NCBI GenBank assembly: GCA_964016885.1 | Contig: OZ024749.1 | Coordinates: 27,900,001-27,964,000 of the forward strand | DNA length: 64,000 nt | Reading direction: 5' to 3' | From: Eledone cirrhosa | Lineage: Eukaryota | Notes under the pieces: generated by a model | What the model was told of the DNA's origin: nothing | The model's input: the letters and a program-made list of their open reading frames with translations, nothing else | The model's database searches: none | Position numbers and translations under genes: made by a program | Part shown: positions 1,881 to 60,586 of the stretch, in pieces | Numbering within the stretch: position 1 is the first letter of the stretch | How the letters are laid out: each line of letters begins with the position of its first letter

Positions 1881-2066
1881 GAAGGAATTGTGGTAAGGAA
1901 CCAGATGGACCATAACGCACCAGAGTACTCAATACTTAGGGTAGTAGAGTGGATAATAGGAAAAAGTATGACCCCGACGGCAGAGCTCAAGCCGTTTCGA
2001 CGGCTATTTCAGTCCAGAAATAGCCGTCAAAACGGCTTGAGCTCTGCAGTCGGGGTCATACTTTTT

Positions 2067-2070
<4 letters not shown>
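1880..2070 (-). mobile_element. Fold-back element in (TA)n: ~54-bp inverted arms plus tail carrying the ACTC..GAGTACT stem
   Basis: Arms 1957-2010 / 2017-2070 with a 6-nt loop; minus-strand tail ACTCTACTACCCTAAGTATTGAGTACT at 1924-1950; related arms at 12621-12680, 27790-27865, 53550-53605, 62005-62045. Confidence 0.7.
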
Positions 2071-2109
<39 letters not shown>

Positions 2110-2123
2110 TAGATAGATACATG

Positions 2124-2168
<45 letters not shown>

Positions 2169-2619
2169 TTACTTACATACATATAAATACACATGCACAT
2201 ATACATGTTTGAAAGAAGAGAGAGAGAAGGATAATAAACAGATGTATATGAATGTATGTATGTGTGAGTGAGTGTGTCAGCATGGTGTGTGTGTGTGTGT
2301 GTGTGTGTGTCAGTGTGGTATGTGTGTGTGTGTGCTTGCTTTTTCTGTTTGTCCATCAACAACCATCTGATGAACAAATATAGGTGTGTATAGATATCTA
2401 CAAGATGTATTGGTGCACATTTGTAAACACACACACACATACACACACACGTATGTACCCATGACTTCTCATAGAGGTGCAGGGGTGCCATAGTCTCATA
2501 CAGCTTTTCTTGGGCATTTAAAAAAAAAGCCAATGGCCCCCATCCTCTCTCCAAGTCTGAACACAGCCTAACTCTTCCAGAGAGAGAGAGAGAGAGAGAG
2601 AGAGAAGTGAGAAAGTGAG

Positions 2620-2935
2620 GAGAATCAACTCCAGTATTCAACTGGTACTTTTTCTATCTACCTTGAAGGGATGAAAGGTAAAGTGATAAAGATATATAGG
2701 AGAATCAACTCCAGTATTCAACTGGTACTTTTTCTATCTACCTTGAAGGGATGAAAGGTAAAGTGATAAAGATATATAGGAGAGTCAACCCCAGTATTTA
2801 ACTGGTACTTTTTTTATCGACTTCAAAAGGATGAGAGGTAACATTTACCTCAGTAGGATTTGTACTCGGAGAGCAGAGAGCTGGAACAAATACCACAAAG
2901 CATTCTATTTGACGTCGTAAAGACTCTGCCATTTC
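2620..2935 (-). mobile_element. tRNA-derived SINE with Meta-like domain, 3' part triplicated
   Basis: Reverse complement contains the CCTTTCATCC..GGT(A/C)GATA..AAAGTACCAG motif three times. Confidence 0.65.
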
Positions 2936-2944
2936 ACTGCAATA

Positions 2945-3825
2945 TATATAAAAATTCAAGCATGTTTTGCAGCATGAAGACCAGAAACAGGAGGTGTTCA
3001 GAATTGCAAGGCTGTGCGTCAGGGAAAATTGCGATGTCATTGGTGAGAAGGAGTATCCGGGATGATAAAGGTGCACTTGCCCTCACAAGCGCCGAAAAGA
3101 AAGCTGCATGGAAGAACCATTATGAAAGATTACTGAATGAGGAGAATGCATGGGAAAAAGAGACTCTACCCCAAGTGGACCCTACAAAGGACCCAACCAT
3201 ACAAGACAGCAGCAGTGTAGTAACTAAGGCAATTAAGGATATAAAACCAGGAAAGCAGCCGGTTCATCAGGAATAGTTACTGAGATGCTGAAAGCATCTA
3301 GGTCGGTAGGTCACATCTTAACCATAAGTATTATAAACCAAGTAATACTAAATGGTGCCATACCAAATGATTGGCGCAGCAGCATCATTGTCAACTGCTA
3401 CAAGGGTAAAGGAGATGCATTAGATGGAGGAAACTATAGAGGCATCAGGTTGACTGGGTGTTGTGTGCAGAGGACCTGCACAGATTGGAAAGGAATGAAG
3501 CATGCATGCTGCGTTGGATGTGTAATAGTAATATACATGAATGACAAAACATAAATGAACTAAGTGAGAAATTAGGAATAAGAAGGATCAGATGCAGTTT
3601 ACTTGAGAGGAGATTATGTTGGTATGGTCACGTGATGCGCATGAAAGGCGACAGCTGTATAAAAAGTGCAGGGAGATCAAAATTGATGGAAGCTATGGAG
3701 TAGGTAGACCCAGAAAAACCTGGGATGACATGATAAAAACTGACCTTGCACACTTACACCTCTCTAAGACAATGTCACTGGATCGAGACCTTTGGCGCTA
3801 CGCAGTAATACAGAAGACCCGCCTT
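2945..3825 (+). mobile_element. Decayed, internally deleted RTE-clade LINE ORF fragment
   Basis: Translated pieces WKNHYERLLNEEN, IPNDWRSSIIVNCYKGKGDALDGGNYRGIRL and GRPRKTWDDMIKTDL; frameshifts; RT core missing. Confidence 0.9.
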
Positions 3826-3844
3826 CTCTTATCATCATCATTCA

Positions 3845-4181
3845 TCATCATCATTCCATTTTACGTCCACTTTTTCCCTGCTTGCAAGGGTGGGACGGGA
3901 ACTGATTCTGGCTTGATTTCTACAGCTGGATGCCCTTCCTAACACCAACCTCATTTATAGTGAGTGCTGGGTGCTTTTTTGCCGTGGCACCTCCACGACC
4001 ACTTTGCAGTGGAATGATATGGACCCCAGTCCTATCATCTCATTTCTACAGCTGAGTAAACTGGAGCAATGTGAAATAAAGTGTCTTGCTCAAGGAAACA
4101 ACACATCACCCAGTCTGGGAATTGAACTCACAACCTTTTGATTGCAAGGCCAATGCTCTAACCACTAAGCCATGTGCCTCC
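3845..4181 (-). mobile_element. tRNA-head composite SINE with RTE-type 3' tail
   Basis: Head GGAGGCACATGGCTTAGTGGTTAGAGC with B-box GAGTTCAATTC; central CCTTGAGCAAGACACTT; GTTAGGAAGGGCATCCAGC; tail GGACGTAAAATG..(ATG)n; near-identical copies elsewhere in the window. Confidence 0.9.
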
Positions 4182-4309
4182 ATATGTATGAAGTTAAACC
4201 TACAGCCAGTAGACACCTCTTGACCCAATATACAACCCACCCCAATAGCCCTACTCCATCCTCCCACTCCCACCAACACCACCCTTTCTCTGTAAAGTTA
4301 TGTTGGTAC

Positions 4310-4590
4310 CACAGAATATCCAGTCCACACTGTAAAGTGGTCGTGTAGGTGCCACGACAAAAAGCACCCAGTCCACACTGTAAAGAGGTCGTGTAGGTAA
4401 CACGGTAAAACGACTCCCAGTCCACACTGTAAATGTGGTTGGTGTTAGGAAGGGCATCCAGCCGCAGAAAACCTACCAGATAGTCCTATACGAGTGAGAC
4501 ATGGTCACCCGACGAATTTTGCCTCAAGTGGGACAGTCCCGTCTAACCCATGCTAGTGTAGAAGATGGACGTTAAACGATGATGATGATA
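4310..4590 (+). mobile_element. SINE/RTE 3'-tail fragment with internal ~45-bp repeats
   Basis: CAGTCCACACTGTAAA x3, GTTAGGAAGGGCATCC, CCCATGCTAG..GGACGTTAAACGATGATG. Confidence 0.75.
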
Positions 4591-4800
4591 TATGTATATA
4601 TAATGTATAAACTCACACATGTATATATGCAGATATCCCTTAGGCGGGGCATAAGAAACAATGACTACATGAGTAGATACACCCCCCTTATATAACAATG
4701 GGATCCTCTCTAGCTGTGTAGTGAGTAAAATAACCACCCCACCCCACCCCACCAACTCAGCAGAAATGAGGGAGGAGGGAATGATGAGTCAGAGGATTAC

Positions 4801-9301: not shown

Positions 9302-9343
<42 letters not shown>

Positions 9344-9844
9344 ATAAATTATCGAGATTCGCATTTCGGCACTTGAAATAACGAAAAACAACCTCCAAGA
9401 TGTGAGGCAAGTGCTCAATGATTCAGATGAACCAGAGCTATAACAAACGTTAAAGGCCAAACACACTGAGACGATAGTTAAACAATCATTCGCATAGCCA
9501 AAAAAACGATCAAGTAATTCGGGTATTGAAAATTTACCCGGACCCCTGGAAGGTTGGTAAAATCCAGTATTTGGGTTTCTGCGGCTCCTAAATCAAGTAC
9601 CGTCTGCTTACATAAATAACGTCAGGCTTCTGGTAAGATGATTGAACAAGGAAGCCACTTTCTCAACAGGTTTTAGTTCAATGTTAATACAAGGACTGAC
9701 TATTGCTGACCCCACATGGGGATCAGCAAGGGAGGCAGCCCCTATATCAGGCGAATAAATTCAGTTGTGTATATTTTTGCAAGAATGCAAAAACATCACA
9801 AGTCGAATAGAGTTCTCTCTCTCTCTATATATATATATATAGAT

Positions 9845-10294
9845 TTTGAGTGTATGTTGGTTGTATACCAACACCTCAGTATGCAGGCTGGAGCACTCGA
9901 CGAAGTGCGCAGGTTGGTTTCGTTACTCCGGAGTAATGTAAAATAAAGTTAAATAAAAAGTCAAATGTTTAAAATTTAGCTTCGTTTATTGCTGCTATAT
10001 ATATTTCAGTGACAGCCATCTTTGGCTGTGACCTCTTCAGGCAGTCTGAACCAGTGTGGTACAGACAAGCACACATGTTGTTGAGGTGTATAATACTGTC
10101 AATACTCTGATATGCCCAGTTCCTGGTTGGGCCGTCATTTCACTGAGGAACCGGAATCATGATATGATTCCGGTTCCTCAGTGAACTGGTTCGGACTGCC
10201 TGAAGAGGTCACAGCCAAAGATGGCTGTCACTGAAATATATATAGCAGCAATAAACAAAGCTAAATTTTAAACATTTGACTTTTTATTTAACTT

Positions 10295-10301
<7 letters not shown>
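9845..10301. mobile_element. Fold-back element with paired hammerhead ribozymes, nested hairpin and ACTC..GAGTGCT tail
   Basis: Arms ~9938-10055 / 10185-10301; flanked by (TA)n on both sides. Confidence 0.8.
10196..10248 (+). ncRNA. Type I minimal hammerhead ribozyme
   Basis: CTGC|CTGAAGA-GGTCACAGCC-AAAGAT-GGCTGTCACT-GAAA-TATATA-TA|GCAG followed by AATAAA; mirror copy on the minus strand at ~9992-10044. Confidence 0.8.
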
Positions 10302-12072: not shown

Positions 12073-12412
12073 GGAGGCACATGGCTTAGTGGTTAGAGCA
12101 TTGGCCTTGCAATCGGAAGGTTGTGAGTTCAACTCTCAGACCGGGTGATGTGTTGTTTCCTTGAGCAAGACACTTTATTTCACATTGCTCCAGTTTACTC
12201 AGCTGTAGAAATGAGATGATAGGACTGGGGTCCATATTATTCCACTGCAAAGTGGTCGTGGAGGTGCCACGGCAAAAAAGCACCCAGCACTCACTGTAAA
12301 TGAGGTTGGTGTTAGGAAGGGCATCCAGCTGTAGAAATCAAGCCAGAATCAGTTCCCGTCCCACCCTTGCAAGCAGGGAAAAGCGGACGTAAAAATGAAA
12401 TGAAATGATGAA
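12073..12412 (+). mobile_element. tRNA-head composite SINE copy (full length)
   Basis: A-box TGGCTTAGTGG, B-box GAGTTCAACTC, tail GCGGACGTAAAAATGAAATG. Confidence 0.9.
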
Positions 12413-12756
12413 ATGATACATACATACACACACTCAAACATGTACACACACAGAGACATACACATATATATAATTATTCCTCTGAATTTTTCAATTTTCA
12501 ACGGAAACTTCAATACTTATATATATATATATATACACGCACACACACATATGTATTTACACATACACACACACACATATATATATATACATACCTAACA
12601 TATATATATATATATATATATCCAGAAATAGCCGTCGAAACGGCTTGAGCTCTGCCGTCGGGGTCATTCTTTTTCCTATATATATATATATATATATGGG
12701 TACATATATATATATATATATATATATAAACATATATATATATATATATATATATA

Positions 12757-27154: not shown

Positions 27155-27223
<69 letters not shown>

Positions 27224-27226
27224 TAT

Positions 27227-27715
27227 GCACCAGTTGCTTTCACTCCAATTTATTATAGATTAAAAAAAAATTTTTTTTAATTTTTTCAAAAAATTAATAA
27301 ATTTCCGGTTGGTTGGTTGGTTCCACAACCAGACGGTTGTTCATATACTGTCAAAGTTCTTTCGTCACACATTCTGTGACCTCTTCAGTGACTGGGGATT
27401 CTTTTCTTTGTTTTGTGCCTCTTCTTTGTTCTGTCCTACGCCATCTTACAAAAACAAGATGGCGTAGGACAGAACAAAGGAGAGGCACAAAACAGAGAAA
27501 AGAATCCCCAGTCACTGAAGAGGTCACAGAATGTGTGACGAAAGAAATTTGACAATATATGAAGAGCCGTTCTGTTGTGGAACCAACAAACCGGAAATTT
27601 ATTAATTTTTTTGAAAAAATAAAAAAAAATTTTTTTTTAATTTATAATAAAGTAGAGTGAAAGCAACTGGTGCGTGTGTTTCTTATTGGCAACATGACCC
27701 TCCCAAAGCATAACA
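27227..27715. mobile_element. Large fold-back element (~220-bp arms) with paired hammerhead ribozymes
   Basis: Arms 27227-27447 / 27456-27673 with an 8-nt loop; adjacent to (TA)n; single-arm copy at 61302-61557. Confidence 0.85.
27511..27553 (+). ncRNA. Minimal type I hammerhead ribozyme
   Basis: GTCA|CTGAAGA-G-GTCACA-GAATG-TGTGAC-GAAA-GAAA-TT|TGAC; mirror copy at 27350-27392 (-). Confidence 0.8.
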
Positions 27716-28569
27716 ATATCGGTTTCAACACACGTTTTCAGATAAAGAATCATGCTAAACAAATTCAGAAACGAAATATATATATATAAGAAAGAGGGTG
27801 TGGTAAGATACCAGGTGGACCATAACGTAACGGAGCTCAGCCGTTGGTTCCCGACTCTTTTCCTAAATATACATACATACACACATAGACATATATATCC
27901 ATTGTTTTTACACTGATGTAAATGTGTGTGAGTGTATCTATCTATATATGTGTGTGTGTGTTTATATTAATCTAAAAACCATCATAATTTCATGTAAGAA
28001 CCTTTGTTAAGTTATGTTCCAAACACTCCTGGTTCTATGATACAAAACTTTGTTTTAAAGTGCTTATATTTATCTAAAAATCTTCCATCATAATCTCATG
28101 TAAAAACCCGTTAAGTTATGTTCCAAGCACCAGCTTAACCCGTCTGATATCAAACCTCCTCAAACCAGTCCTGGTTCTATTATGTAAAGTTGTACATTTT
28201 AAAGTGTTTCTATTGAGCAAAAAAAAAACCTGCCATCATAATTTTATGTAAGAACCTTTGTTAAGTTATGTTCCAGACACCAACTTAATAATGATTTACA
28301 CCAATGTACATACATTCCCAGCCACTTCACAATAACTAAACAAACAAATATGTTGTCACAGTACTGACAAAATATTAGCATAGATCTCCTCCCTCAACAC
28401 AGCTCCCTCTCCCCTCCATTCAACACAGACCTCCTTCTCCAGCCTGCAGCCCCCTCCTCTCCAAATTGGGACTCCCATCGAACACATCCCGCCCACCACA
28501 CCACACATGATAGGAAATTCTAAGAAATGCGTCATATCTGTTGTGCAATATTTCTAACAAATACAATCT

Positions 28570-31059: not shown

Positions 31060-34000
31060 ATCCAGACAGTACCACCATTACCAACATTATCACAACCACC
31101 ACTATCATCATCATCATCATCAACATTACCATCACAACCACCACTATCATCATCATCACCAACATTACCATCACAACCACCACTATCATCATCATCAACA
31201 TTACCATCACAACCACCACTATCATCATCATCACCAACATTACCATCACAACCACCACTATCATCATCATCGTCAACATTACCATCACAACCACCACTAT
31301 CATCATCATCATCAACATTACCATCACCACCACCACTATCATCATCATCATCAACATTACCATCACAACCACCACTATCATCATCACCAACATTACCATC
31401 ACCACCACCACTATCATCATCATCATCAACATTACCATCACAACCACCACTATCATCATCACCAACATTACCATCACAACCACCACTATCATCATCATCA
31501 ACATTACCATCACAACCACCACTATCATCATCATCACCAACATTACCATCACCACCACCACTATCATCATCATCAACATTACCATCACAACCACCACTAT
31601 CATCATCATCATCAACATTACCATCACAACCACCACTATCATCATCATCATCAACATTACCATCACAACCACCACTATCATCATCATCAACATTACCATC
31701 ACAACCACCACTATCATCATCATCATCAACATTACCATCACAACCACCACTATCATCATCATCATCAACATTACCATCACAACCACCACTATCATCATCA
31801 TCAACATTACCATCACAACCACCACTATCATCATCATCAACATTACCATCACAACCACCACTATCATCATCATCACCAACATTACCATCACCACCACCAC
31901 TATCATCATCATCATCATCAACATTACCATCACAACCACCACTATCATCATCATCATCAACATTACCATCACCACCACCACTATCATCATCACCAACATT
32001 ACCATCACAACCACCACTATCATCATCATCACCAACATTACCATCACCACCACCACTATCATCATCATCATCAACATTACCATCACAACCACCACTATCA
32101 TCATCATCATCAACATTACCATCACAACCACCACTATCATCATCATCACCAACATTACCATCACCACCACCACTATCATCATCATCATCATCAACATTAC
32201 CATCACAACCACCACTATCATCATCATCACCAACATTACCATCACCACCACCACTATCATCATCATCATCATCAACATTACCATCACAACCACCACTATC
32301 ATCATCATCATCAACATTACCATCACAACCACCACTATCATCATCATCATCAACATTACCATCACAACCACCACTATCATCATCACCAACATTACCATCA
32401 CAACCACCACTATCATCATCACCAACATTACCATCACAACCACCACTATCATCATCACCAACATTACCATCACAACCACCACTATCATCATCATCATCAT
32501 CAACATTACCATCACAACCACCACTATCATCATCATCACCAACATTACCATCACAACCACCACTATCATCATCATCATCAACATACCATCACAACCGCCA
32601 CTATCATCATCATCATCAACATTACCATCACAACCACCACTATCATCATCATCATCAACATTACCATCACAACCGCCACTATCATCATCATCATCATCAA
32701 CATTACCATCACAACCACCACTATCATCATCATCATCATCAACATTACCATCACAACCACCACTATCATCATCATCATCAACATTACCATCACAACCACC
32801 ACTATCATCATCATCATCAACATTACCATCACAACCGCCACTATCATCATCATCATCAACATTACCATCACAACCACCACTATCATCATCATCATCAACA
32901 TTACCATCACAACCACCACTATCATCATCATCATCATCAACATTACCATCACAACCACCACTATCATCATCATCACCAACATTACCATCACAACCACCAC
33001 TATCATCATCATCATCAACATTACCATCACAACCGCCACTATCATCATCATCATCAACATTACCATCACAACCACCACTATCATCATCATCATCAACATT
33101 ACCATCACAACCGCCACTATCATCATCATCACCAACATTACCATCACCACCACCACTATCATCATCATCATCATCAACATTACCATCACAACCACCACTA
33201 TCATCATCATCATCAACATTACCATCACAACCACCACTATCATCATCATCACCAACATTACCATCACAACCACCACTATCATCATCATCACCAACATTAC
33301 CATCACAACCACCACTATCATCATCATCAACATTACCATCACAACCACCACTATCATCATCATCAACATTACCATCACAACCACCACTATCATCATCATC
33401 ACCAACATTACCATCACAACCACCACTATCATCATCATCATCAACATTACCATCACAACCACCACTATCATCATCATCAACAACATTACCATCACAACCA
33501 CCACTATCATCATCATCACCAACATTACCATCACAACCACCACTATCATCATCATCATCAACATTACCATCACAACCACCACTATCATCATCATCATCAA
33601 CATTACCATCACAACCACCACTATCATCATCATCATCAACATTACCATCACAACCACCACTATCATCATCATCATCATCAACATTACCATCACAACCACC
33701 ACTATCATCATCATCATCATCAACATTACCATCACAACCACCACTATCATCATCATCATCATCAACATTACCATCACAACCACCACTATCATCATCATCA
33801 ACAACATTACCATCACAACCACCACTATCATCATCATCATCAACATTACCATCACAACCACCACTATCATCATCATCACCAACATTACCATCACAACCAC
33901 CACTATCATCATCATCACCAACATTACCATCACAACCACCACTATCATCATCATCATCATCAACATTACCATCACAACCACCACTATCATCATCATCATC

Positions 34001-37000
34001 ATCAACATTACCATCACAACCACCACTATCATCATCATCATCATCAACATTACCATCACAACCACCACTATCATCATCATCAACAACATTACCATCACAA
34101 CCACCACTATCATCATCATCATCAACATTACCATCACAACCACCACTATCATCATCATCAACATTACCATCACAACCACCACTATCATCATCATCACCAA
34201 CATTACCATCACAACCACCACTATCATCATCATCACCAACATTACCATCACAACCACCACTATCATCATCATCACCAACATTACCATCACAACCACCACT
34301 ATCATCATCATCAACAACATTACCATCACAACCACCACTATCATCATCATCACCAACATTACCATCACAACCACCACTATCATCATCATCATCAACATTA
34401 CCATCACCACCACCACTATCATCATCATCATCAACATTACCATCACAACCACCACTATCATCATCATCAACATTACCATCACAACCACCACTATCATCAT
34501 CATCACCAACATTACCATCACAACCACCACTATCATCATCACCAACATTACCATCACAACCACCACTATCATCATCATCACCAACATTACCATCACAACC
34601 ACCACTATCATCATCATCAACATTACCATCACAACCACCACTATCATCATCACCAACATTACCATCACAACCACCACTAGCATCATCATCAACATTACCA
34701 TCACAACCACCACTAGCATCATCATCATCAACATTACCATCACAACCACCACTAGCATCATCATCATCAACATTACCATCACAACCACCACTAGCATCAT
34801 CATCATCAACATTACCATCACAACCACCACTATCATCATCACCAACATTACCATCACAACCACCACTATCATCATCATCAACATTACCATCACAACCACC
34901 ACTATCATCATCATCATCAACATTACCATCACAACCACCACTATCATCATCATCAACATTACCATCACAACCACCACTATCATCATCATCAACATTACCA
35001 TCACAACCACCACTATCATCATCATCACCAACATTACCATCACAACCACCACTATCATCATCATCAACATTACCATCACAACCACCACTATCATCATCAT
35101 CAACATTACCATCACAACCACCACTATCATCATCATCACCAACATTACCATCACAACCACCACTATCATCATCATCATCAACATTACCATCACAACCACC
35201 ACTATCATCATCATCAACAACATTACCATCACAACCACCACTATCATCATCATCATCAACATTACCATCACCACCACCACTATCATCATCATCATCAACA
35301 TTACCATCACAACCACCACTATCATCATCATCACCAACATTACCATCACAACCACCACTATCATCATCATCAACATTACCATCACAACCACCACTATCAT
35401 CATCATCAACATTACCATCACAACCACCACTATCATCATCATCACCAACATTACCATCACAACCACCACTATCATCATCATCATCAACATTACCATCACA
35501 ACCACCACTATCATCATCATCAACAACATTACCATCACAACCACCACTATCATCATCATCATCAACATTACCATCACAACCACCACTATCATCATCATCA
35601 TCAACATTACCATCACAACCACCACTATCATCATCATCAACAACATTACCATCACAACCACCACTATCATCATCATCATCAACATTACCATCACAACCAC
35701 CACTATCATCATCATCAACAACATTACCATCACAACCACCACTATCATCATCATCATCAACATTACCATCACAACCACCACTATCATCATCATCATCAAC
35801 ATTACCATCACAACCACCACTATCATCATCATCAACAACATTACCATCACAACCACCACTATCATCATCATCATCAACATTACCATCACAACCACCACTA
35901 TCATCATCATCATCAACATTACCATCACAACCACCACTATCATCATCATCAACAACATTACCATCACAACCACCACTATCATCATCATCATCAACATTAC
36001 CATCACAACCACCACTATCATCATCATCATCATCAACATTACCATCACAACCACCACTATCATCATCATCATCATCAACATTACCATCACAACCACCACT
36101 ATCATCATCATCATCATCAACATTACCATCACAACCACCACTATCATCATCATCAACAACATTACCATCACAACCACCACTATCATCATCATCATCAACA
36201 TTACCATCACAACCACCACTATCATCATCATCACCAACATTACCATCACAACCACCACTATCATCATCATCACCAACATTACCATCACAACCACCACTAT
36301 CATCATCATCATCATCAACATTACCATCACAACCACCACTATCATCATCATCATCATCAACATTACCATCACAACCACCACTATCATCATCATCATCATC
36401 AACATTACCATCACAACCACCACTATCATCATCATCATCAACATTACCATCACAACCACCACTATCATCATCATCACCAACATTACCATCACAACCACCA
36501 CTATCATCATCATCACCAACATTACCATCACAACCACCACTATCATCATCATCACCAACATTACCATCACAACCACCACTATCATCATCATCAACAACAT
36601 TACCATCACAACCACCACTATCATCATCATCACCAACATTACCATCACAACCACCACTATCATCATCATCATCAACATTACCATCACCACCACCACTATC
36701 ATCATCATCATCAACATTACCATCACAACCACCACTATCATCATCATCAACATTACCATCACAACCACCACTATCATCATCATCACCAACATTACCATCA
36801 CAACCACCACTATCATCATCACCAACATTACCATCACAACCACCACTATCATCATCATCACCAACATTACCATCACAACCACCACTATCATCATCATCAA
36901 CATTACCATCACAACCACCACTATCATCATCACCAACATTACCATCACAACCACCACTAGCATCATCATCAACATTACCATCACAACCACCACTAGCATC

Positions 37001-37895
37001 ATCATCATCAACATTACCATCACAACCACCACTAGCATCATCATCATCAACATTACCATCACAACCACCACTAGCATCATCATCATCAACATTACCATCA
37101 CAACCACCACTATCATCATCACCAACATTACCATCACAACCACCACTATCATCATCATCAACATTACCATCACAACCACCACTATCATCATCATCATCAA
37201 CATTACCATCACAACCACCACTATCATCATCATCACCAACATTACCATCACAACCACCACTATCATCATCATCACCAACATTACCATCACAACCACCACT
37301 AGCATCATCATCAACATTACCATCACAACCACCACTATCATCATCAACATTACCATCACAACCACCACTATCATCATCATCACCAACATTACCATCACAA
37401 CCACCACTATCATCATCATCATCAACATTACCATCACAACCACCACTATCATCATCATCAACATTACCATCACAACCACCACTATCATCATCAACATTAC
37501 CATCACAACCACCACTATCATCACAACCACCACTATCATCATCATCAACATTACCATCACAACCACCACTATCATCATCATCATCAACATTACCATCACA
37601 ACCACCACTATCATCATCATCAACATTACCATCACAACCACCACTATCATCATCACCAACATTACCATCACAACCACCACTATCATCATCACCAACATTA
37701 CCATCACAACCACCACTATCATCATCATCACCAACATTACCATCACAACCACCACTATCATCATCATCATCACCAACATTACCATCACAACCACCACTAG
37801 CATCATCACCAACATTACCATCACAACCACCACTATCATCATCATCAACATTACCATCACAACCACCACTATCATCATCAACATTACCATCACTA
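31060..37895. repeat. 6.8-kb minisatellite, unit AACATTACCATCACAACCACCACT(ATC)3-6
   Basis: Read directly; unit lengths are multiples of 3, producing spurious 1700-2400-aa ORFs. Confidence 0.97.
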
Positions 37896-38109
37896 TCATC
37901 ATCACCTTCTACTCAAAAGTTATACCATACATCATCATCCGTTTCATGGCACCACTAGCAACCAATGCTGACATATTTATCCCTCCCCAACCATCATCAT
38001 CAACCTCATTTGAATATCTGTTCTTCACACATCTAACACTGAGCAGCAGAACTTTTGTTTATGCAGAACATAAACAAATATCACTGCCTCTGCTTGCAAT
38101 GTCAATGTT

Positions 38110-39110
38110 GGTTAATTCAAATGTTTATAGTATCTTGACAGTTTGTTGAAAAATTTGCTGTAAAGTAAAGACTTTAATTTTTAATGTGAGGTATCATAGT
38201 GATGTGTTGTACTTTTCAAGAATGTCTTGCTAATGTGGTTTCATGTGGTTTGTTAATTCAAATGTTTATAGTATCTTTATTAGTGAATAGATTGTTTACA
38301 AATTTGCAGTATTAAAGTAAAGACTTCAATTTTTGATGCAGACATAGTACTGTTTAGTACTTTTCAACAATGTCTTGCTAATACAGTTTCATATGGTTTG
38401 TTAATACAAATGTTTATAGTATCTTATAGATTGTTCAGAAATTTGCAGTGGAGAATTTAATTTTTAATATGATGCAGTCATAGTGTTATTTTGTACTTTT
38501 CAAGAATGTCTAGCTAATGTAGTTAATTCAAATCAGCATCATCACCTGATAATGTCAATTTTCCACGCTAGCATGTGTTAAACTGTTTGTAGTATCTTTA
38601 CTTATGGACAGATCATTGTGAAAATTAGCAGTATTTGAGTAAATACATTAATATTTAATGTGATACAGTTATAGTGTTGTTTTGTACTTTTCAAGAATGT
38701 CTTGCACATGTGATTTATTAATTTAAACGTTTCTAGTATCTGTACTAGTGGACAAGTCATTGTGAAAATTTGTAATATTAGAGTAAAAATTAATTTTCAA
38801 TGTGATGCAGTCATAGTGCTGTTTTCAAGAATATTTTGCTAATGTGGTTTCATGTGTGTACTCAAATGTTTATAGTATCTTTACAAGTGGATAGATCATT
38901 GGGAAAATTTACAGTATTAGAGTAACAACATTAATTTTTAATGATATGCATGTCAATCCAAATCAATTGGAGATGGTTACTTCTGAAAGGACATGCTGGA
39001 AGGAGTGTTTGAGGACTCTACTCTTATGACCTTCCCAGGAATAAGTGAACAAAAAAGAAGATTCAGTCATAGTGTTGTCTATACTTTTCAAGAATATCTT
39101 GCTAATATGG
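38110..39110. repeat. ~125-bp degenerate tandem repeat
   Basis: GTACTTTTCAAGAATGTCTTGCTAATGTGG and AAATGTTTATAGTATCTT recur about 7 times. Confidence 0.85.
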
Positions 39111-42304: not shown

Positions 42305-42563
42305 AGTGGAAGCTTAGTAAAATCGAAGCTTTGGCTGTGGCCAAGCAAAGTCAACTTACAATAAGGAATGAGTAACAAAGCACTCAATAAGGGCAGGTCC
42401 TTAGAGTAATAAATAACATTACGTTTAAATAGCTTGACAAATTGGAAATTGCAGTAGGCAAAACCCAACCATACAGTACCAAAACAACAAAAATATATAT
42501 AGATATATTACATATATATATATATAGATATATATATATAGAAAGAGAGGAAGAGAGAGTGAG

Positions 42564-44054: not shown

Positions 44055-44589
44055 CACCCATACACACACATTTATATATTCATTTTATTAAGGTTGAATA
44101 GTAAGTCTAGTTACTCAGGAGTTTGGCCTATTTATCACAGGGTCATCAGACAAGAACATATATGTGTGTGTGTATATATGTGTGTGTATATATATATATA
44201 TATACACACACACATAATACATAATAACAAATAGGCACAGCCTTATATATATATATAGAGAGAGAGAGATAGATAGATAGATACATATATGTCGTATATC
44301 AACATATGAGGTTTCAACAGTTTTCCCACTTCAATTTTTTTATGGTTACACCTTAAGTGGCACTTCAGTCCAGCTGTAGATTTACACATCAAGTCGCATT
44401 TGGTACAGATGACAGGATTTTGAGTGGAATAGGATGGATCGGATCTTTTTGTTAGATCTTAGATCACAAAATGGACCAGATGAGATTTTTCAAAGCCCTT
44501 TATAACTTCATGGCAGACAGTTCTCCATTTTCCACGGTTAGCAGCTAGGGCTTCGAAAGAAGTAAGAGGTATGTTCATATATATATATA

Positions 44590-44855
44590 GTTATGTAATA
44601 AACAACATAAGATAATTATTTAATTTACCAAAGGTTTCACAAAGACAGACGAGCCTGGCAGAGATGTCTGGCTTCAATTGTCAGAATGAAATTTTATTAA
44701 ATAAAATTTCATTCTGACTATTGAAGTCTGTGCCAAGCTCGTCTGTCTTCATGAAACCTTTGGTAAATGAAATAATTATCTTATGTTTATTACATAACTC
44801 AAAAGCTCTGTAGCCTACACTCTTTTCCTTTACCTTTCCTACGGAAACACTTCAT
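44590..44855. mobile_element. Fold-back element with paired, decayed hammerheads
   Basis: Arms 44590-44698 / 44700-44798; TTTCATT|CTGACTA-TTGAAG..CTTCAT-GAAACC-TTT-GGTA|AATGAAA; (TA)n on both sides. Confidence 0.75.
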
Positions 44856-45490: not shown

Positions 45491-45821
45491 GACTCAGGTA
45501 GTAATAACCATCCATCTCATGCCAACATGGATAGCAGACATCAGAATTACGGTATGTATGTGTGTGCTTTCATGTGTCTATGTCGGTGTGAGAAAACCAG
45601 TGCAGTGAGTTGCAACCCCTCCACGTCTTAGCGATTTGATAAACTGACATTAACAAATCATGTACTAGACTGAAATAAATACTGGAGGTGAGATGGTTAA
45701 CTAACATTTTGAAGGTGGTCACAATCTATTGACTAGAAACAGTTAAATAATATCTACATATATATATATATGTATGTGTGTTTCCTGCCCATCCCTTCAA
45801 TTTTTTTAATTTCCCATTCTT

Positions 45822-45857
45822 TCTTCTGATGAAGGAATAGCGTCCGAAACGTTAAGA
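45822..45857 (+). ncRNA. Canonical Penelope-type minimal hammerhead ribozyme (solo)
   Basis: TCTT|CTGATGA-A-GGA-ATAGCG-TCC-GAAAC-GTT|AAGA; palindromic AACGTT replaces helix III. Confidence 0.85.
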
Positions 45858-46199
45858 CCCTCTTCCTGCTATTTCAAGCAATAACCTAATATATTCCTTC
45901 CATATTCTCTACTGATTGTGTTGTTTTTTCTGTTTACCTTTTATATATATATAATAAATATAATATATCGATTTCTACATGCTGTTGAAATGTTGGATAA
46001 ATACTCTATCGTAGCCACCGCAAAGAGGCCGCTTTTGGTTATTTGTCGAAAATTTCTTCATAGGAGCCTTTATTCTTATAGCTTGGTCTAATTGATTTTT
46101 TATATGGTTAATTATGCTAATTGGGAGAGGAAATAGTATATATTATATCTAGTGATTCTAAAGACATGATTTATGATATATATATATATATATATATAT

Positions 46200-46420
46200 A
46201 GGAGGATTCCCGAAACATGTCAGGAGGTGAACACTGTTAAAACAGTTACTCCTCAATACGTTAGTAGAGTGTAGGTATCTTTATCTTTTTTATATAGAGC
46301 TGACTTCTACAGGATTAAAACTGTTTCATTCATATGAAATCATCAGGATTATTCCTTATGGTTTCTCACAAATGAAACAGCTCTAGTCCTGTAGAAGTCA
46401 TTTCTATATAAAAAAGAAAA
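46200..46420 (-). mobile_element. Fold-back HHR element (GAAACAGTTCTAGTCCTGTAGAAG family)
   Basis: Arms 46285-46417; minus-strand CTGATGA at 46340-46346; tail ACTCTACTAACGTATTGAG; between (TA)n tracts. Confidence 0.75.
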
Positions 46421-46752
46421 AAATATATATATATATATAGCCCCAGCATGGCCTCAGCCGGATGGCTGAAACAGGTAAAAGAGTATACATATATATTCTA
46501 CCAGGAGTTGTGACCGGTAGATTATATGAGCAATAGAAAAACCAATGGAAACTATTTCCTTGGTTCATATTTGACAATCAGTTCATTTCTTGTACAAGGA
46601 GTTGTGACTGGTAGATAGATTCAGTAATAGAAAGACCAATGGAAACATTGTTTCTTTGGTCCTATTTAATGAGTTCCACCCTACTTGGTAAGCAAATGAG
46701 ATCTGGAAACTAGTTGATCGATAAAAAAAATATTAAAAAATATATATAGTTA

Positions 46753-51327: not shown

Positions 51328-51762
51328 CGAGCTCTAGGATTGGATGTGAGAAAAGAAGTATTACCTCTCTCTCTGTCATGTAAATAGCAACAATAGCTAG
51401 AGAGAATAGAAAAGAGAGAGAGAGAGAGAGAGAACAGAGACAGAATGGGGAAAGAGAAGAGAAAACTAAGTTTGAAGTATTGCCAGTGTACTCCTCTCTC
51501 TCTCTCTCTCACTCACTCTCAAGTCAGTCTCCCAGTGTTGTAAAAAACAAAGATCCTCAGCTGAGAGAGAGAAGGGAGAAAGGAGGGAGAGTGAGGGATA
51601 AGAAGGGAGGGAGAGAGAGAGGAAGAAGGAGGAGAAGAGAGAGGAGGAGGGGGAGGAAAGACAAATGGTTGTTTTGATTTCTCAGATTTAATTAAACCTG
51701 ATAGAAATCAGGAAATAATTTAATGAAACTAATCAAACAATTACACACCCACACATATATAT

Positions 51763-51980
51763 ATCAAATTTAATATAGAAATGGCTTCTACAGGACTAGA
51801 ACTGTTTCATTTGAAAGAAATCAGCAGGAAAGCTTTTTTGATTTCTTGGGCTTTCCTGACAACTTCTTTCGAATGAAACAGTTCTAGTCCTGTGGAAACC
51901 ATTTTTATATTAAATTTGATGTTTATACTCTACTAATGTATTGAGTACCTTACTAACTGTGGTTACCCCTCATTGAACTC
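51763..51980 (+). mobile_element. Fold-back HHR element, same family as 46200-46420
   Basis: Arms 51763-51920; cores CTGACAA (+) and CTGCTGA (-); tail ACTCTACTAATGTATTGAGTAC at 51927-51948. Confidence 0.78.
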
Positions 51981-51981
51981 A

Positions 51982-52062
51982 CAGGGTGTCCCCCAAAAAT
52001 ATATATACCCACTTTGATTAGAATGCTGTTGAAGTATGTATACATTTTTGGGGACCCCTGTA
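51982..52062. mobile_element. Short Tc1/mariner-like MITE
   Basis: CAGGGTGTCCCCCAAAAAT ... ATTTTTGGGGACCCCTGTA; a related end lies at 10514-10550. Confidence 0.55.
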
Positions 52063-53199
52063 CATATATAGTTCACTGAGAATAAATGTGTTCTCTTAGC
52101 TCTCTCACTGTTAATAAGGTCCCTGAGCTTAAACCCAACTGCCTTTTTTTTTAACTTTGTCCTCTCTCCCTTTGGTTACTTTACTTACATGTGCCATTGT
52201 CTTGTGTTTCCCCTCTTCTATCGGTATATTTTTTTTCTTTTTTCCACTTTTTTTTCTTCCTTTTTCTCTCTTCGCTCTCACCTCTTTTTCGTCATTTCTT
52301 TCCCTCATAACTTGATAAGTTATGGGCGCACTACAGATAGATGTATTGTCTATAATGCACTGAAACATCAATGACCCGTAATAGACAACTGATGAAGGAA
52401 AAATGTTTATCACTTGTTTTGTGTTCCCTTAACTTTCTAACACTATATAGTATATATAATGTATTAATGAAAAAAAGGAAGATGGGCAGAAATAAAGAAA
52501 AGAAGGAAGACAAGGACATACTACCTATGTTAGTACACTAGTGTACTAACATAGGTAGTATTAGTATCACACCTGGTACACTTGTGTACTAACAAAGGTA
52601 GTATTAGTATCACATCAATTGTACTAGTGTAATAACAAAGGTAATATTAGTATCACATCAATTACACTAGTGTACTAACAAAGGTAGCAGATCAAACCAA
52701 GTGTTTTTTTGCTTCTGTTTTTAACCAATTTCCAGTCAGTTTCTACATTCACTTTGGTCTGTTTCCAAATGAGAACTTCAGAACCAGACATCACCCCTAA
52801 CACATCCAGCACAAACACAACCACCCCTAACACATCCAACACAGACATATTCACCCCCTCCCCCAAACTCATCCACTCCAGACACATTCACCTCTAACAC
52901 AGCCACCCCCAACACATCCACCTCTAACACATCCACTCCAATACAGCCACCACCCACATCTATCCGCAACACCCCACCTCCAAGGCATCTCTCCTCCAGT
53001 CATACAACCACCCCATCACCCTACATCCATCACTCACACAACTCTCTATAATCTCAATTTACACAAAAGAGAAGACACTAGAAAACTATCTCACATTCTC
53101 TCTTCCTTTCTCCCTCTTACTCTTACTGTCTCTCTCACTCTCTTCCTTTCTCCCTCTTGCTCTTACAGTCTCTCTCTCACTCTCTCTTGCCCTAATTGT

Positions 53200-54289: not shown

Positions 54290-54680
54290 GGGAGTGTAAC
54301 TTGGAGTTACTGCAGGTTCACCCGGGTGAGCACTCGATGTTTAGGTTCACTTCTGTGTTGAGGTGTAGAGCTGTACAGAGTGTAATATATTGAAAGGATA
54401 ACAAGGACGATTGGTTACTCCTTCATTACATTTTTTGGTAGGTGACGCGCGTTTCGCCACTGATCAGCTCAAGGTTCGATCTGTATCAATCTTACCTGAC
54501 TCTATAATCCGTAGCTCGACGGACCCTTTCTACTAGCATTTTAAAGGGTCCGTTGAGCTGCGGATTGTAGAGTCGGGTAAGATTGATACAGATCGAACCT
54601 TGAGCTGATCAGTGGCGAAACGCGCGTCACCTACCAATAAATGAAGGAGTAACCAATCATCCTTGCTATCCTTTCAATAT
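54290..54680. mobile_element. Fold-back element (~140-bp arms) with HHR 3' half GAAACGCGCGTC and AATAAA
   Basis: Arms 54387-54529 / 54543-54680; minus-strand tail ACTCT..ATCGAGTGCT at 54329-54381. Confidence 0.78.
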
Positions 54681-54758
54681 AGAAATATTAGAAAGTGAGG
54701 TTTTTTTTACAAAATGAAAAATAACCGAGGTGTCCTACACGAGTGAAAGTATAAAGAA

Positions 54759-54953
54759 AAAAAGATGAAATCGAAAATGCAACTGGAGTCTTATTTAAAA
54801 AAAAATACATATATTTATTTGGTTCCTTTACCGGTTTCGCAGTTCTTCTGCTTTTCAAAAGTAGAGTTGAGATGGAGGGTCTGTGGTAAAGGAACCAAAT
54901 AAATATATGTATTTTTTTAAAAATAAGACTCCAGTTGCATTTTCGATTTCATC

Positions 54954-54958
<5 letters not shown>
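54759..54958. mobile_element. Fold-back element with a U3-A8 variant hammerhead
   Basis: ~75-bp arms; ribozyme on the minus strand; ends in (TA)n. Confidence 0.78.
54826..54861 (-). ncRNA. Minimal hammerhead ribozyme, TTGAAAA core variant
   Basis: CTT|TTGAAAA-GCAG-AAGAA-CTGC-GAAA-CCGG-TA|AAG followed by AATAAA. Confidence 0.78.
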
Positions 54959-55361: not shown

Positions 55362-55520
55362 TACAAATATTAATAAAATAGATGTTCTTGTGATCAATTA
55401 AATTTTTTTATACATATTTCAGAGGTACAACAGTACGTCCTCATCAGAACATCTATTTTATTAATATTTGTATTTTAATATTAATAACTCTGGAAAATAT
55501 TTTTCAGTAGAGTGCTTCCA
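55352..55520. mobile_element. Fold-back element with an HHR in the loop
   Basis: ~36-bp AT-rich arms; minus-strand CTGATGA-GGACGTAC-TGTT-GTACCTCT-GAAA-TATGTA-TA; plus-strand ACTCT..GTAGAGTGCT at 55487-55516. Confidence 0.7.
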
Positions 55521-58233: not shown

Positions 58234-58239
<6 letters not shown>

Positions 58240-58555
58240 ATTAAATAAATGGAAACTATATTTATAAAACCATATTTATTTCATTATATATATTTCGGGG
58301 ATATCATATTAACAATATGCTATGCCAAATCTATTTATCTATAAAACTATTTATATTGTATTTTGTCTGAGGAAGGCATAGCATATTGTTAATATGATAT
58401 CCCCGAAATATATATAATGAAATAAATATGGTTTTATAAATATAGTTTCCATTTATTTAATATTGTAAATATACTCCAAATATTTGTCGAGTGCTTTTAT
58501 ATCAGTTATAAATATTTACTAGTTGTAACCCAACAATTTTAAATATAACTTTCCA
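58234..58555 (+). mobile_element. Fold-back element with apparently perfect ~93-bp arms, an HHR and the ACTC..GAGTGCT tail
   Basis: Arms 58234-58326 / 58375-58467; CTGAGGA at 58367-58373, GAAA at 58405-58408; (TA)n on both sides. Confidence 0.82.
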
Positions 58556-58953
58556 TATATATATATATATATGTGTGTGTGTATATATGTATAAGATAAG
58601 ATATCGTTTAAGGTAATCGAGTGTCCTGACTTCTAACGATCAGTGACCTTTAGACACACTGGACTAATGAAACAATTGTTAATACTTTAAATAAACCCCA
58701 TTGTACAGCTGACCATGTTACTCTTCATTCTTTTACTATATATATCTATATATCTATATTCGTTTGTTTTGTGGTTCACCACTGGATAGAACTGGTCATT
58801 CCATTTAGTTAACCATGATGTAATAGCAGGAAAAGCACTCTACATTATGCAAGTCATCCATCGTTGATGTTGAATTCCATGGTTGGTGTAGGAACAGAGT
58901 TAAATATTAATTAGAAAAACTTTAAAAGGCTATCCCTTGTCTGGCCTCCTGTT

Positions 58954-59003
<50 letters not shown>

Positions 59004-59554
59004 CTAGAAATTGATTAACATATATATAAACATGAATAATCATAATTTAATTTACCTTAATTTTGGATATATATATATATATATATATATGAAAAAAATA
59101 TTGTTTTTTACAAAAACAATATAAAAACTGGAAAAAGGAAGGTGGAGAAGTAAAAACCTAAAAAAACTAATTTATTATAATAAACAGTACAAAAGGCTAG
59201 TGGTTTGACGCTAAACCTCTATAGTTGGATAACATATATCTTTTAAGCGTCTCTGCTTATGACATTATTGCGTCTTTTTAAATGTAAATAAATGCTCTGA
59301 CTGTGTATTGTCGGTCTGTTTGATGAGACAATATTATGAGGTATTTCCTTATAAATGATTGATTTTGATAAGTCCCAATAAAGGAAAACAATACTCAATC
59401 TAGTACAAGAGAACTTGTACTAGATAGAGTATTGTTTTCCTTTGCCTTTTATCTACGGATATCCTGCATATATATATATATGGTTCCACATGCAGATTTT
59501 TGTAGCAAAGTCTGTCATACAACAATAAAACAAACAGGCATACAGTAGCCTAAA

Positions 59555-59730
59555 TAATTGTTTCCTACTTTTGGCCCAAGTCCAGCAATTATCCCAGTGC
59601 ATTACTGGTGCTTTTTTTTTTTTATCGACCATATAAGGATGAAAGGCCAAGTTAACCTAGGCGGGATTTGAACTTAGGCCGTAAAGGGCCGTAACTCTAT
59701 GTTGCAAAGCATAGCATCTGACCCTCTACA
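59555..59730 (-). mobile_element. Meta-domain tRNA SINE
   Basis: Reverse complement is similar to 53200-53385. Confidence 0.78.
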
Positions 59731-59743
59731 GCAATCTTCAGAC

Positions 59744-59956
59744 TTGACCCTTTAGCATTCACGTTACTCTATATATACTATTATATTTTCATGGTAAAGG
59801 CTTTATCTCACATAATATCGAATCTATGAGATTTTGATATTTATTTTAAGAACAATACCTTAACATTGGTGTGATCAGCCAGTTATAGCCAGTTTGAACA
59901 GAAAGAAGTGAGAGAATTCTGGCCGGATATGGCCGGTTTAAATGCTAAAGGATTAA
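59744..59956 (-). mobile_element. piggyBac-type MITE
   Basis: CCCTTTAGCATT ... AATGCTAAAGGA TTAA. Confidence 0.82.
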
Positions 59957-59990
59957 GGATAAAATTCTCCGGGTGTACATATACATAAAT

Positions 59991-60034
<44 letters not shown>

Positions 60035-60069
60035 GTCCAAGCAGGGAAAAGCGGACGTAAAATGATGAT

Positions 60070-60391
60070 GATCATCATCATCATTTCATTTTACGTCCGC
60101 TTTTTCCCTGCTTGCAAGGGTGGGACGGAAACTGATTCTGCCCTTCCTAACACCAACCTCATTTACAGTGAGTGCTGGGTGCTTTTTTGCCGTGGCACCT
60201 CCACGACCACTTTGCAGTGGAATGATAGGGACCCCAGTCCCTATCATCTCATTTCTACAGCTGAGTAAACTGGAGCAATGTGAAATAAAGTGTCTTGCTC
60301 AAGGAAACAACACATCACCCGGTCTGAGAATTGAACTCACAACCTTTCGATTGCAAGGCCAATGCTCTAACCACTAAGCCATGTACCTCCA
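60070..60391 (-). mobile_element. tRNA-head composite SINE with a small internal deletion
   Basis: Matches 3845-4181. Confidence 0.9.
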
Positions 60392-60420
60392 TGATATATC
60401 TATATATACATATATATTCA

Positions 60421-60586
60421 TTATTATTAAAGCTAAAAATGAGTGTTGTTACTCTTGAGATTCACCTGATAAACAGGTGAAACTCCAGAATAACAAAAGC
60501 CACTTTTTAGCTTGAATAATAATTGTTTCTACTTCAAACTCTACTTTGGTATTGAGTATTCCTTTTTCTCTGTTGTCAACTACATG

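Follow-up and report, generated by a model that had tools for sequence, protein, structure and literature searches.

Penelope-like elements (PLEs) of the Hydra clade, as described by Craig et al. 2021 (PMC8557442), target (TA)n, carry a hammerhead ribozyme near the 3' end, and leave an inverted 5'-truncated copy with a tail on one side. The same features are seen in the window, the 64-kb stretch of Eledone cirrhosa DNA analysed here, where tails consist of the motif described below plus 29–80 nt, versus a general 30–40 bp in that study. In the anole Poseidon element, PAc, the reverse transcriptase (RT) initiates internally at two sites bounding the tail; RNA lying about 55 nt 3' of these sites is required, and each strand is both cut and extended (Frangieh 2024, PMC11167929). 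In the published PLE work compared here, the RNA feature recognized by the RT has been localized, for one element, no more finely than to about 170 nt, and explanations of the one-sided tail are in outline only. The motif is not described in the main text of Craig et al. 2021 (PMC8557442), and no such motif appears in those Naiad and Chlamys passages of its supplement that were examined.

A bulged stem-loop in the window

The first-pass annotation listed nine sites with a conserved ACTC-loop-GAGTRYT stem in the tails of otherwise unrelated elements. All nine were recovered at their coordinates and on their strands (E1–E9, Table 1), but the full ACTC..GAGTRYT is present in only seven, the site at 46252 stopping at GAG and that at 51927 ending in GAGTACC. 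These two are not unrelated but belong to the same family (69% identity over about 180 nt), so that the nine sites represent eight families.

Taken alone, the bare ACTC..GAGTRYT expression is weak: it matches the window 11 times (both strands of one palindrome accounting for two of the 11) against 4.2 ± 2.2 in block shuffles (n = 200), and 11 was equalled in one shuffle or more. The bulged stem-loop is genuine, and is judged so because features outside the expression are decisive. The triplet preceding GAGT is R-T-H in 11/11 strict matches, though the expression does not demand it (null 0.13); an inner stem of at least 3 bp lies beyond a 3' bulge of 2–3 nt in nine of the 11 (null 0.11); and the two features occur jointly nine times, against a shuffle mean of 0.057 and a maximum of one (300 shuffles). 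Together with the covarying inner pairs described below, the bulged stems bear out the earlier suggestion of a second inner stem, with a 3'-side bulge, whose structure is kept while its sequence varies. The refined consensus is RCTC-Y-[stem]-loop-[stem']-R-TH-GAGY-RYT, with a loop of 9–56 nt, and the outer pair is mostly A-U in the window copies.

A (TA)n run, the Hydra-clade target, lies 25–85 nt past 9/11 strict matches (background 13.9%, P 8e-7), while GAGTRYT lacking ACTC shows the same proximity in only 4/26 cases. Isolated stems are weak: folding of the nine sites together with their tails placed the motif stem in the minimum-energy structure of five, and the z-score was below -2 for only one. 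That no named motif matches, as had been remarked, agrees with an Rfam search, which gave no covariance-model match on the motif in four foreign loci, in 9341–10299 or among the 150 of 210 window matches listed. Copies absent from the earlier list are included in Table 1 (58834–58900, 24302–24342, two with a G-C outer pair at 9410–9438 and 16149–16175, and degenerate ones).

Table 1. Motif copies and associated features in the window
Feature	Position	Strand	Remarks
Motif copy E1	1924..1950	-	45 nt ahead of (TA)n; two related copies have their tail-less ends 5 nt upstream
E1 head-to-head hairpin	1953..2075	.	Contains hammerhead 3' half (by eye)
Motif copy, G-C outer pair, 6-bp inner stem	9410..9438	-	69 nt ahead of (TA)n; closes high-depth repeat 9341-9825
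Motif copy E2	9892..9934	-	50 nt ahead of (TA)n; inverted arm stops 4 nt upstream
E2 inverted arms, 98% identical	9939..10301	.	Full type I hammerhead core in each (box 10040 on -, 10200 on +)
Motif copy, G-C outer pair, TTT replacing RYT	16149..16175	-	33 nt ahead of TA-rich repeat
Motif match, 6-bp inner stem	24302..24342	-	Downstream (TA)n absent; putative member
Motif copy E3	42379..42407	-	Insert is 5'-truncated and lacks hairpin and hammerhead; 78 nt ahead of (TA)n
Hammerhead hairpin	44590..44853	+	Tail resembles G-C motif from 44805, 6 nt past arm end; about 7 nt of 3' half gone (by eye)
Degenerate motif copy	46000..46053	-	Outer stem with two G-U pairs
Motif copy E4	46252..46270	-	Damaged 3' end; arm end 5 nt upstream; hairpin 46276-46425, hammerhead box 46346
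Motif copy E5, family of E4	51927..51949	+	Arm stops about 6 nt upstream; hairpin 51756-51927
Motif copy E6, long loop	54329..54381	-	Arm stops 4 nt upstream; hairpin 54386-54681 carries hammerhead 3' half
Motif copy E7, 3-nt bulge	55487..55516	+	Arm end 5 nt upstream; hammerhead on opposite strand only (55447)
Motif copy E8	58473..58495	+	Arm end 5 nt upstream; full hammerhead, box 58367; element 58236-58554
Motif copy, long loop, 5'-truncated insert	58834..58900	-	80 nt ahead of (TA)n
Self-inverted copy	59380..59443	.	Centre inside motif loop; 34 nt ahead of (TA)n on +
Motif copy E9	60538..60560	+	29 nt ahead of (TA)n; arm stops about 14 nt upstream, an outlier; hairpin 60420-60523

Occurrence in Hydra-clade elements

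The same motif, with the outer A-U pair swapped for G-C, marks Hydra-clade PLEs in animal DNA found within four to five prokaryote assemblies, and it is present, by eye, in 4/6 published Hydra consensus sequences (File S7 of Craig et al. 2021, PMC8557442). It is conserved across animal phyla. Hydra-clade ORFs were recognized by RWK and DKT motifs, a CxCX5C linker and, at the C-terminus, a GIY-YIG domain that lacks CCHH. The foreign loci (G001–G006) were assigned to the clade by these ORF motifs: the linker is invariant in 7/7 aligned sequences, the six N-termini have an invariant MRW and an ADKT consensus, and one of four gave a GIY-YIG match (E 6e-4). The motif follows ORFs that carry the CxCX5C linker. 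When 25 Hydra-like ORF ends were examined without use of the motif, 10 ran on into it, 10 ended in a microsatellite just short of it, and five were ambiguous.

The motif is not general to hammerhead-bearing PLEs, being missing in 23/26 other hammerhead loci, with a full tail in only about 4/26; the three positives are due to a neighbouring Hydra insert past a (TA)n run. Scans of viral contigs gave six chance matches in one and none in another, with no Hydra relatives. A pattern scan of metagenomes returned 113 loci, mostly by chance, with short inner stems among the matches listed, and the A-U pattern gave five bacterial matches in genome contigs, all by chance. In G001 the A-U pattern occurs at background (26 vs 40 in the control), and the G-C pattern matches 42 times, about nine of these being tRNA-derived or palindromic-repeat false positives (by eye) that were excluded. 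A looser, degenerate pattern was excessively noisy and was dropped.

Covariation

Among 34 family representatives, inner pair 1 is Watson-Crick in 32 (shuffled mean 17.9), and pairs 2 and 3 are each paired in 30 (shuffled means 16.4 and 14.5). A second count found 31 cells with double changes, a value reached in 0/500 shuffles. These shuffle counts are not probabilities, because the representatives are related and the search patterns presuppose the outer pair, whose A-U/G-C covariation is therefore partly built in. G-U occurs seven times among the inner pairs and A-C not at all, so that the sense strand is favoured.

A covariance model (R2) was built from 25 copies outside the window; since MAFFT misaligned 23 foreign motifs, it was seeded on five copies of equal length and then refined. 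Its top 10 window matches comprise eight of the nine original sites and two new ones. A search of G004 and G006 with R2 found nothing, yet one locus in G006 (L229) matches the model when searched singly.

Two motifs and two copy ends

In intact units the hammerhead is followed after 30–60 nt by motif 1, then after some 40 nt by motif 2, and then by the ORF start. Motif 2 is present at 6/6 intact ORF starts, five of which have both motifs, 39–41 nt apart, and the distance from its end to the conserved S.KNIP codons is 37–56 nt (five ORF starts measured).

Copies end at short and long positions. The short ends lie 3–6 nt ahead of motif 1 in seven G001 families. In the window, where the motif had been described as lying a few nucleotides outside one arm, this is so for 7/8 hairpins, whose short ends are 4–6 nt ahead of the motif, but not for E9 (about 14 nt). 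The short-end offset holds although the distance from hammerhead to motif varies from 25 to 62 nt (by eye). Long ends lie 29–41 nt past motif 1 in G001, and in two families showing both motifs they are 4 and 6 nt ahead of motif 2, a rule that rests on these two families. Head-to-head pairs are 16 mixed short/long, one short/short and no clear long/long: G001 contributes eight mixed and the one short/short pair with no long/long, and 8/8 pairs in the window are mixed (P 0.0015; counting the self-inverted copy as long/long gives 0.01).

Eight of the nine original window sites show an inverted copy that is 5'-truncated and tailed at one end. Three sites have full hammerhead cores, four have 3' halves on the motif strand, one has a hammerhead on the opposite strand only and one has none; Rfam misses the window hammerheads. 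A Penelope ORF fragment was not found in the window (Pfam on 100 of 223 candidate frames, and a six-frame short-motif scan), so that only motif, target and geometry link the window copies with the Hydra clade. Motif 2 is not visible there, and the copies are likely to be 5'-truncated Hydra-type insertions displaying motif 1 only.

A probable signal for internal initiation

According to the first-pass annotation, the stem would serve the mobilising RT as a cis-acting RNA signal, for recognition or for priming. Motif matches do accompany hammerhead hairpins, their inner pairs covary, and the motif stands far above background frequency, all of which support the proposal; binding and initiation are what we infer. 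The data support a narrower form of it, in which a Hydra-clade motif, present twice per unit, lies a constant distance 3' of either copy end. Since it is found a few bases past both ends, it is likely an RNA signal that sets the RT start, and this would account for insertions being tailed on one side only. We consider it probable, from sequence evidence, that the tandem leader stem-loops each bind the RT-endonuclease and start reverse transcription internally, about 3–6 nt upstream of the stem. The stem would fold in the sense RNA, and the element protein would cut (TA)n; the cut ends could then pair with the AU-rich bases preceding a stem and serve as primers at that point. If one RNA carried two protein molecules, both sides of the break would be primed, one per motif, and joining of the two cDNAs would give an insert shaped like a hairpin, with motif 1 and the spacer forming its 'tail'. 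A stronger version, which we offer only tentatively and hold to be somewhat short of an even chance, treats the stem-loops as two RNA 'ruler' copies per transcript, each for one RT-endonuclease subunit starting about 5 nt upstream, so that a single RNA, at two fixed internal sites, would prime both ends of the (TA)n break.

Structured, often bulged RNAs likewise position an RT away from the RNA 3' end in hepadnaviruses (the epsilon stem-loop) and in diversity-generating retroelements (the 3' spacer). In those systems priming is from protein or RNA and the element is single, whereas the Hydra motif is duplicated and priming is proposed to occur from cut target DNA. PAc is alike in its two internal starts with the tail between them, its need for 3' RNA, and the cutting and extension of both strands (PMC11167929). 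It belongs to another clade, initiates in an AC-rich stem-loop within the ORF, and has no defined conserved or duplicated recognition motif. Initiation by PAc proceeds without target homology (PMC11167929), whereas TA microhomology is seen at Hydra-type copies.

Alternative explanations

The main rival, which we think unlikely, is that the stem directs RNA cleavage or 3'-end formation a few nt upstream, by the element protein, a host nuclease or self-cleavage, with the RT then target-priming at that end. It predicts the same end geometry, and would fit one full-length copy (L184) that begins exactly at motif 1, the Hydra-1_Ajap consensus, which begins 2 nt ahead of motif 1, and the RNA-seq read ends that fall on initiation sites (Frangieh 2024, PMC11167929). 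Independent cuts, however, would not yield the mixed short/long pairing, internal starts are made by the anole enzyme on templates extended at the 3' end (PMC11167929), and the Rfam matches listed include none to the motif, which is small.

Internal initiation also has to be weighed against the idea that the motif is a relic with no role, either of a hammerhead that has lost its core (the catalytic boxes gone but stem I, stem III and the NUH triplet kept) or of a tRNA D-arm. Penelope pseudo-LTRs carry minimal type I hammerheads (Cervera and De la Pena 2014, PMC4209133); these occur upstream in the same elements, and the motif mimics their stem I, stem III and NUH; its geometry is that of a type I hammerhead minus the core, the R-T-H between its stems (11/11) being a triplet of NUH type. 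One Hydra hammerhead in the table of Craig et al. (PMC8557442) has an ACTC/GAGT stem I, as do 11 of the 113 metagenome pattern matches, which are full hammerheads. The motif differs in that the CUGANGA and GAAA boxes are absent inside it (34 representatives) and in its position, which is beyond the end of the pseudo-LTR and downstream of another, distinct hammerhead. The ACTC/GAGT hammerheads sit about 50 nt ahead of the short end, a place taken in the window elements by their separate hammerhead, and neither copy end coincides with NUH. The 11 metagenome hammerheads, which belong to another element group, were rejected as positional equivalents, R2 matching 0/9 of the ACTC/GAGT hammerhead loci. 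Although the G-C pattern is matched by tRNA D-arms, the invariant A and GG of these arms are missing from the motif. Conservation across phyla argues for function, and a relic without a role is quite improbable; as the origin of a functional motif, a hammerhead or tRNA D-arm is possible.

Action as DNA, as an endonuclease recognition site or an internal promoter at the junction of pseudo-LTR and body, is less probable again. The motif does lie within the 5' leader, where Craig 2021 (PMC8557442) puts the Penelope and Chlamys-3 promoter, and the D. virilis endonuclease needs tail sequence (as cited by Frangieh 2024, PMC11167929), but the inner pairs covary despite variable sequence and loop length, G-U pairs favour the sense strand 7 to 0, and recognition of a double strand would not conserve pairing. 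Least probable of all is a translation or stability element of the uncapped, ribozyme-cut RNA, the ends tracking the motif in some other way such as RT pausing or packaging: the upstream hammerhead and the spacing of motif 2 from the S.KNIP codons would suit it, but the 3–6 nt offset of both ends and the mixed pairing are left unexplained.

Significance

A motif of 25–40 nt that covaries across phyla, present twice and at a fixed distance from both ends, allows exact mutations to be defined. It also helps to locate the true ends and the non-autonomous passengers of Hydra-clade elements, and bears on the choice of template start by telomerase-related RTs. If the two-ruler reading is true, it would supply the molecular cause of the one-sided tail and of head-to-head PLE insertions, and the motif would be a portable 25-nt tag, possibly descended from a core-less hammerhead, able to direct any RNA into (TA)n.

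Within the window, the high-depth repeat at 9341–9825 has no recognisable hammerhead, and its reading as an exon or ORF was rejected, there being no Pfam or protein match. At E2, depth in another organism's contigs is limited to the hammerhead and the motif-bearing tail.

The stem-loop motif in the window

The motif is a bulged stem-loop (RCTC-Y-[stem]-loop-[stem']-R-TH-GAGY-RYT), and all nine sequences of the first-pass annotation were found at the positions reported for them (E1–E9, see table). They had been placed in otherwise unrelated elements, but those at 46252 and 51927 belong to one family; the rest have no mutual BLAST matches. The plain pattern is weak evidence alone, with 11 matches in the window against 4.2 ± 2.2 in 200 block shuffles, and the reality of the motif is settled by features beyond the search pattern. 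The triplet before GAGT is R-T-H in 11/11 matches (null 0.13), the second inner stem that the annotation described (at least 3 bp past a 2–3 nt 3' bulge) is present in 9/11 (null 0.11), and the two occur jointly nine times against 0.057 in 300 shuffles, well above background. Nine of the 11 matches also lie 25–85 nt ahead of a (TA)n run (P 8e-7), compared with only 4/26 occurrences of GAGTRYT without ACTC.

The proposed association with hammerhead hairpins was borne out. A head-to-head inverted repeat precedes 8/9 sites, and a hammerhead core or part of one is found at 8/9: a full core upstream on the same strand at three, the 3' half at four, and a core on the other strand only at one. Hammerhead-to-motif spacing is 25 to 62 nt (counted by eye). 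The tail-less inverted arm meets (TA)n 4–6 nt ahead of the motif in 7/8 hairpins, counted at maximal TA microhomology; the arm of E9 ends about 14 nt ahead of it, and that of E6 adjoins another element. Penelope-like insertions are known to have this plan, an inverted truncated copy with a tail at one end (Craig 2021, PMC8557442), and the window inserts share it.

Sequence from four runs was mapped on 9341-10299. Depth of the E2 family is very high in organisms A and C, and one contig of organism C ends in (TA)n at 9939. In organism B, coverage is confined to the hammerhead and motif-bearing tail, and the contigs diverge just 5' of ACTC. Among the best-supported 40 of about 190 variant rows, organism B variants preserve the motif pattern, with an outer-stem C-to-U change leaving G-U and a bulge change of UC to UU.

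Structure and covariation

Covariation was assessed in one set of 34 copies representing the families, 11 from the window and 23 foreign, and the inner pairs do covary. Inner pair 1 is T-A in 20, C-G in 12 and T-G in two, while inner pairs 2 and 3 are each paired in 30/34, with five pair types each. The bulge reads TT, TC or TA, and G-U outnumbers A-C by 7 to 0. In the model alignment, which was fitted to the structure and contains related rows, 31 cells are changed on both sides, a count reached by 0/500 shuffles. The outer pair covaries as well (G-C 24, A-T 10), pairing there having been demanded by the search patterns; a less biased case is the second copy in the foreign contig locus L229, where A-T replaces T-A at outer pair 3. 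Predicted fold stability is modest, as might suit a protein-bound element more than a self-standing fold. No Rfam family matches the motif in four foreign loci, in 9341-10299 or among the window matches listed (150 of 210).

Occurrence in Hydra-clade Penelope-like elements

Hydra elements, their hammerheads and tail have already been published. Six Hydra-clade consensus sequences (Craig 2021, File S7) were inspected by eye. Hydra-2_Amil and Hydra-2_Ajap have the motif, its outer pair being G-C, in their 3' tails. Hydra-1_Ajap opens at its 5' end with two copies, and a variant stands at both ends of Hydra-1_Crog; the remaining two sequences end about 35–45 nt past the hammerhead. A generalised scan also located a G-C copy in the window. 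Among assemblies filed as prokaryote, a scan for the G-C form close to (TA)6 found 13 loci: 11 in G001 (one such assembly, with animal DNA), one in a bivalve-symbiont assembly and one in a bacterial tRNA. Without the TA condition, G001 gave 42 matches against one in the control. One family of G001 differs very little from the coral consensus, so these two are not independent of each other. Animal retrotransposon DNA occurs in assemblies filed as bacteria at L129, L208, L209, L226 and L229, and heavily in G001 (record CBDDTI01).

The Hydra linker CxCX5C is present in the foreign ORFs. In a survey anchored on the ORF and not on the motif, 25 Hydra-like ends were examined: 10 run through a hammerhead into the motif (one with an incomplete hammerhead, one with a cut motif), 10 end in a microsatellite just ahead of it, and five are undecided. 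The motif is missing from 23 of 26 other hammerhead loci, and at the remaining three it belongs to a neighbouring insert; the tail is complete at only about four of the 26. The top ten window matches of a covariance model built from 25 non-window copies are eight of the nine annotated sites plus two new sites, and the ninth ranks 15th (E 8); two copies with long loops, at 58834 and 24302, were not recovered by this search.

Neither the motif nor its duplication nor its constant position relative to the two ends was found in the passages and supplement portions covered of Craig 2021, in the portions covered of Cervera 2014 (PMC4209133), Frangieh 2024 (PMC11167929) or Li 2026 (bioRxiv 10.64898/2026.07.22.740005), or among the openly accessible literature listed by wider searches. 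The motif is a real and apparently undescribed cis element; the retrotransposon clade to which it belongs is known, and it offers a testable explanation for the tail.

Tandem motifs and copy ends

The motif lies ahead of 6/6 intact ORF starts found (two more were excluded as truncated), and in five of these there are two copies at a spacing of 39–41 nt; an inversion interrupts the sixth. The entire junction, from hammerhead through motif 1 and motif 2 to the ORF, is seen in L210, L229 and L234. Inner pair 1 of motif 2 is C-G in all six starts (those three plus L168, L184 and L277), and mostly T-A in motif 1.

Short (tail-less) ends lie 3–6 nt ahead of motif 1 in seven G001 families; by exact extension, 6/22 fall at 9–14 nt because mismatches halted the extension. 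Long (tailed) ends lie 29–41 nt past motif 1 in 23/30 model matches, the spacer less a few bases, a figure that is partly circular since the families used for training had been picked up by a TA-anchored scan. In the two families showing both, long ends are 4 and 6 nt ahead of motif 2. Short ends near motif 1 and long ends near motif 2, at a similar offset, therefore follow one rule. The nine inverted pairs in G001 comprise eight short/long, one short/short and no long/long; short/short pairs are under-sampled, as contigs were selected for motifs or ORFs. Together with the eight window hairpins there are 16 mixed and 0 long/long pairs (P 0.0015 if ends are chosen independently, rising to 0.01 when the self-inverted copy at 59380 is scored long/long).

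Proposed mechanism and alternatives

Layout, covariation, end offsets and mixed pairing are the demonstrated part. We propose that each stem would bind the element's protein and place the start inside the RNA, a few AU-rich bases upstream, where the cut (TA)n would act as primer. With two proteins on one RNA, opposite sides of the break could both be primed, and the resulting cDNAs would join head to head; the tail would consist of motif 1 and the spacer, which would be copied only when synthesis starts at motif 2. Frangieh 2024 describes internal initiation at two sites bounding the tail, a requirement for RNA 3' of both start sites, and cutting and extension of both strands, which supports the frame of this two-site mechanism.

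The main rival is that an RNA cut just ahead of the stem sets the copy ends. This agrees with one full-length copy starting at motif 1, but it does not account for the mixed short/long pairing. Action at the DNA level, a translational role and a relic are weaker readings. The resemblance of the motif to a core-less hammerhead may hint at its origin. Hairpin elements in (TA)n whose hammerhead stem I sequence equals the motif outer stem plus RYT occur at L010, L019, L022, L033, L063, L069, L093, L102, L103, L113, L118 and L169 (4908, +).

Other features of the window

The window is animal DNA, apparently cephalopod-like and rich in repeats, with 37% GC and 221 (TA)n runs. Its inserts probably sit in introns of a Polycomb gene, given a SUZ12 zinc-domain match. 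The repeat ending at the G-C motif has no recognisable hammerhead and no protein match in the 390 nt upstream of the motif, and is a candidate non-autonomous passenger.

Features of the window, in window coordinates
Feature	Position	Remarks
Motif sites E1–E9	1924, 9892, 42379, 46252, 51927, 54329, 55487, 58473, 60538	
G-C motif copy	9410-9438	
Repeat	9341-9825 (-)	Deep coverage in organisms A and C; ends G-C motif, 69 nt, (TA)n
Motif copy	16149-16175	Similar to the 9341-9825 case
E2, second hammerhead-like core	10136-10188	Stem II long and palindromic
E7, hammerhead	55390-55450	Strand opposite to tail, as if two cDNAs joined at stem I
E1-related insert	27789-27890	Arm joins tail at shared hexamer within motif 3' half, deleting the stem
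Hammerhead inserts without clear motif	27220-27775, 45772-45941, 54682-54957, 61302-61567, 63385-63453	
Family tail	27227	Different predicted stem, beginning about at arm end
Hammerhead insert	63387	No tail
SUZ12-like zinc-domain exon-like frame	44246-44458 (-)	E 9e-6, below curated cut-off
Satellite, 7 kb	30929-38149	Short units
LINE-like fragments	12757-13797	Taken to be RT ends
SINE-like repeat	12073-12463	Presumably tRNA-headed, many copies
Small MITE-like insert	51983-52095	TA-flanked
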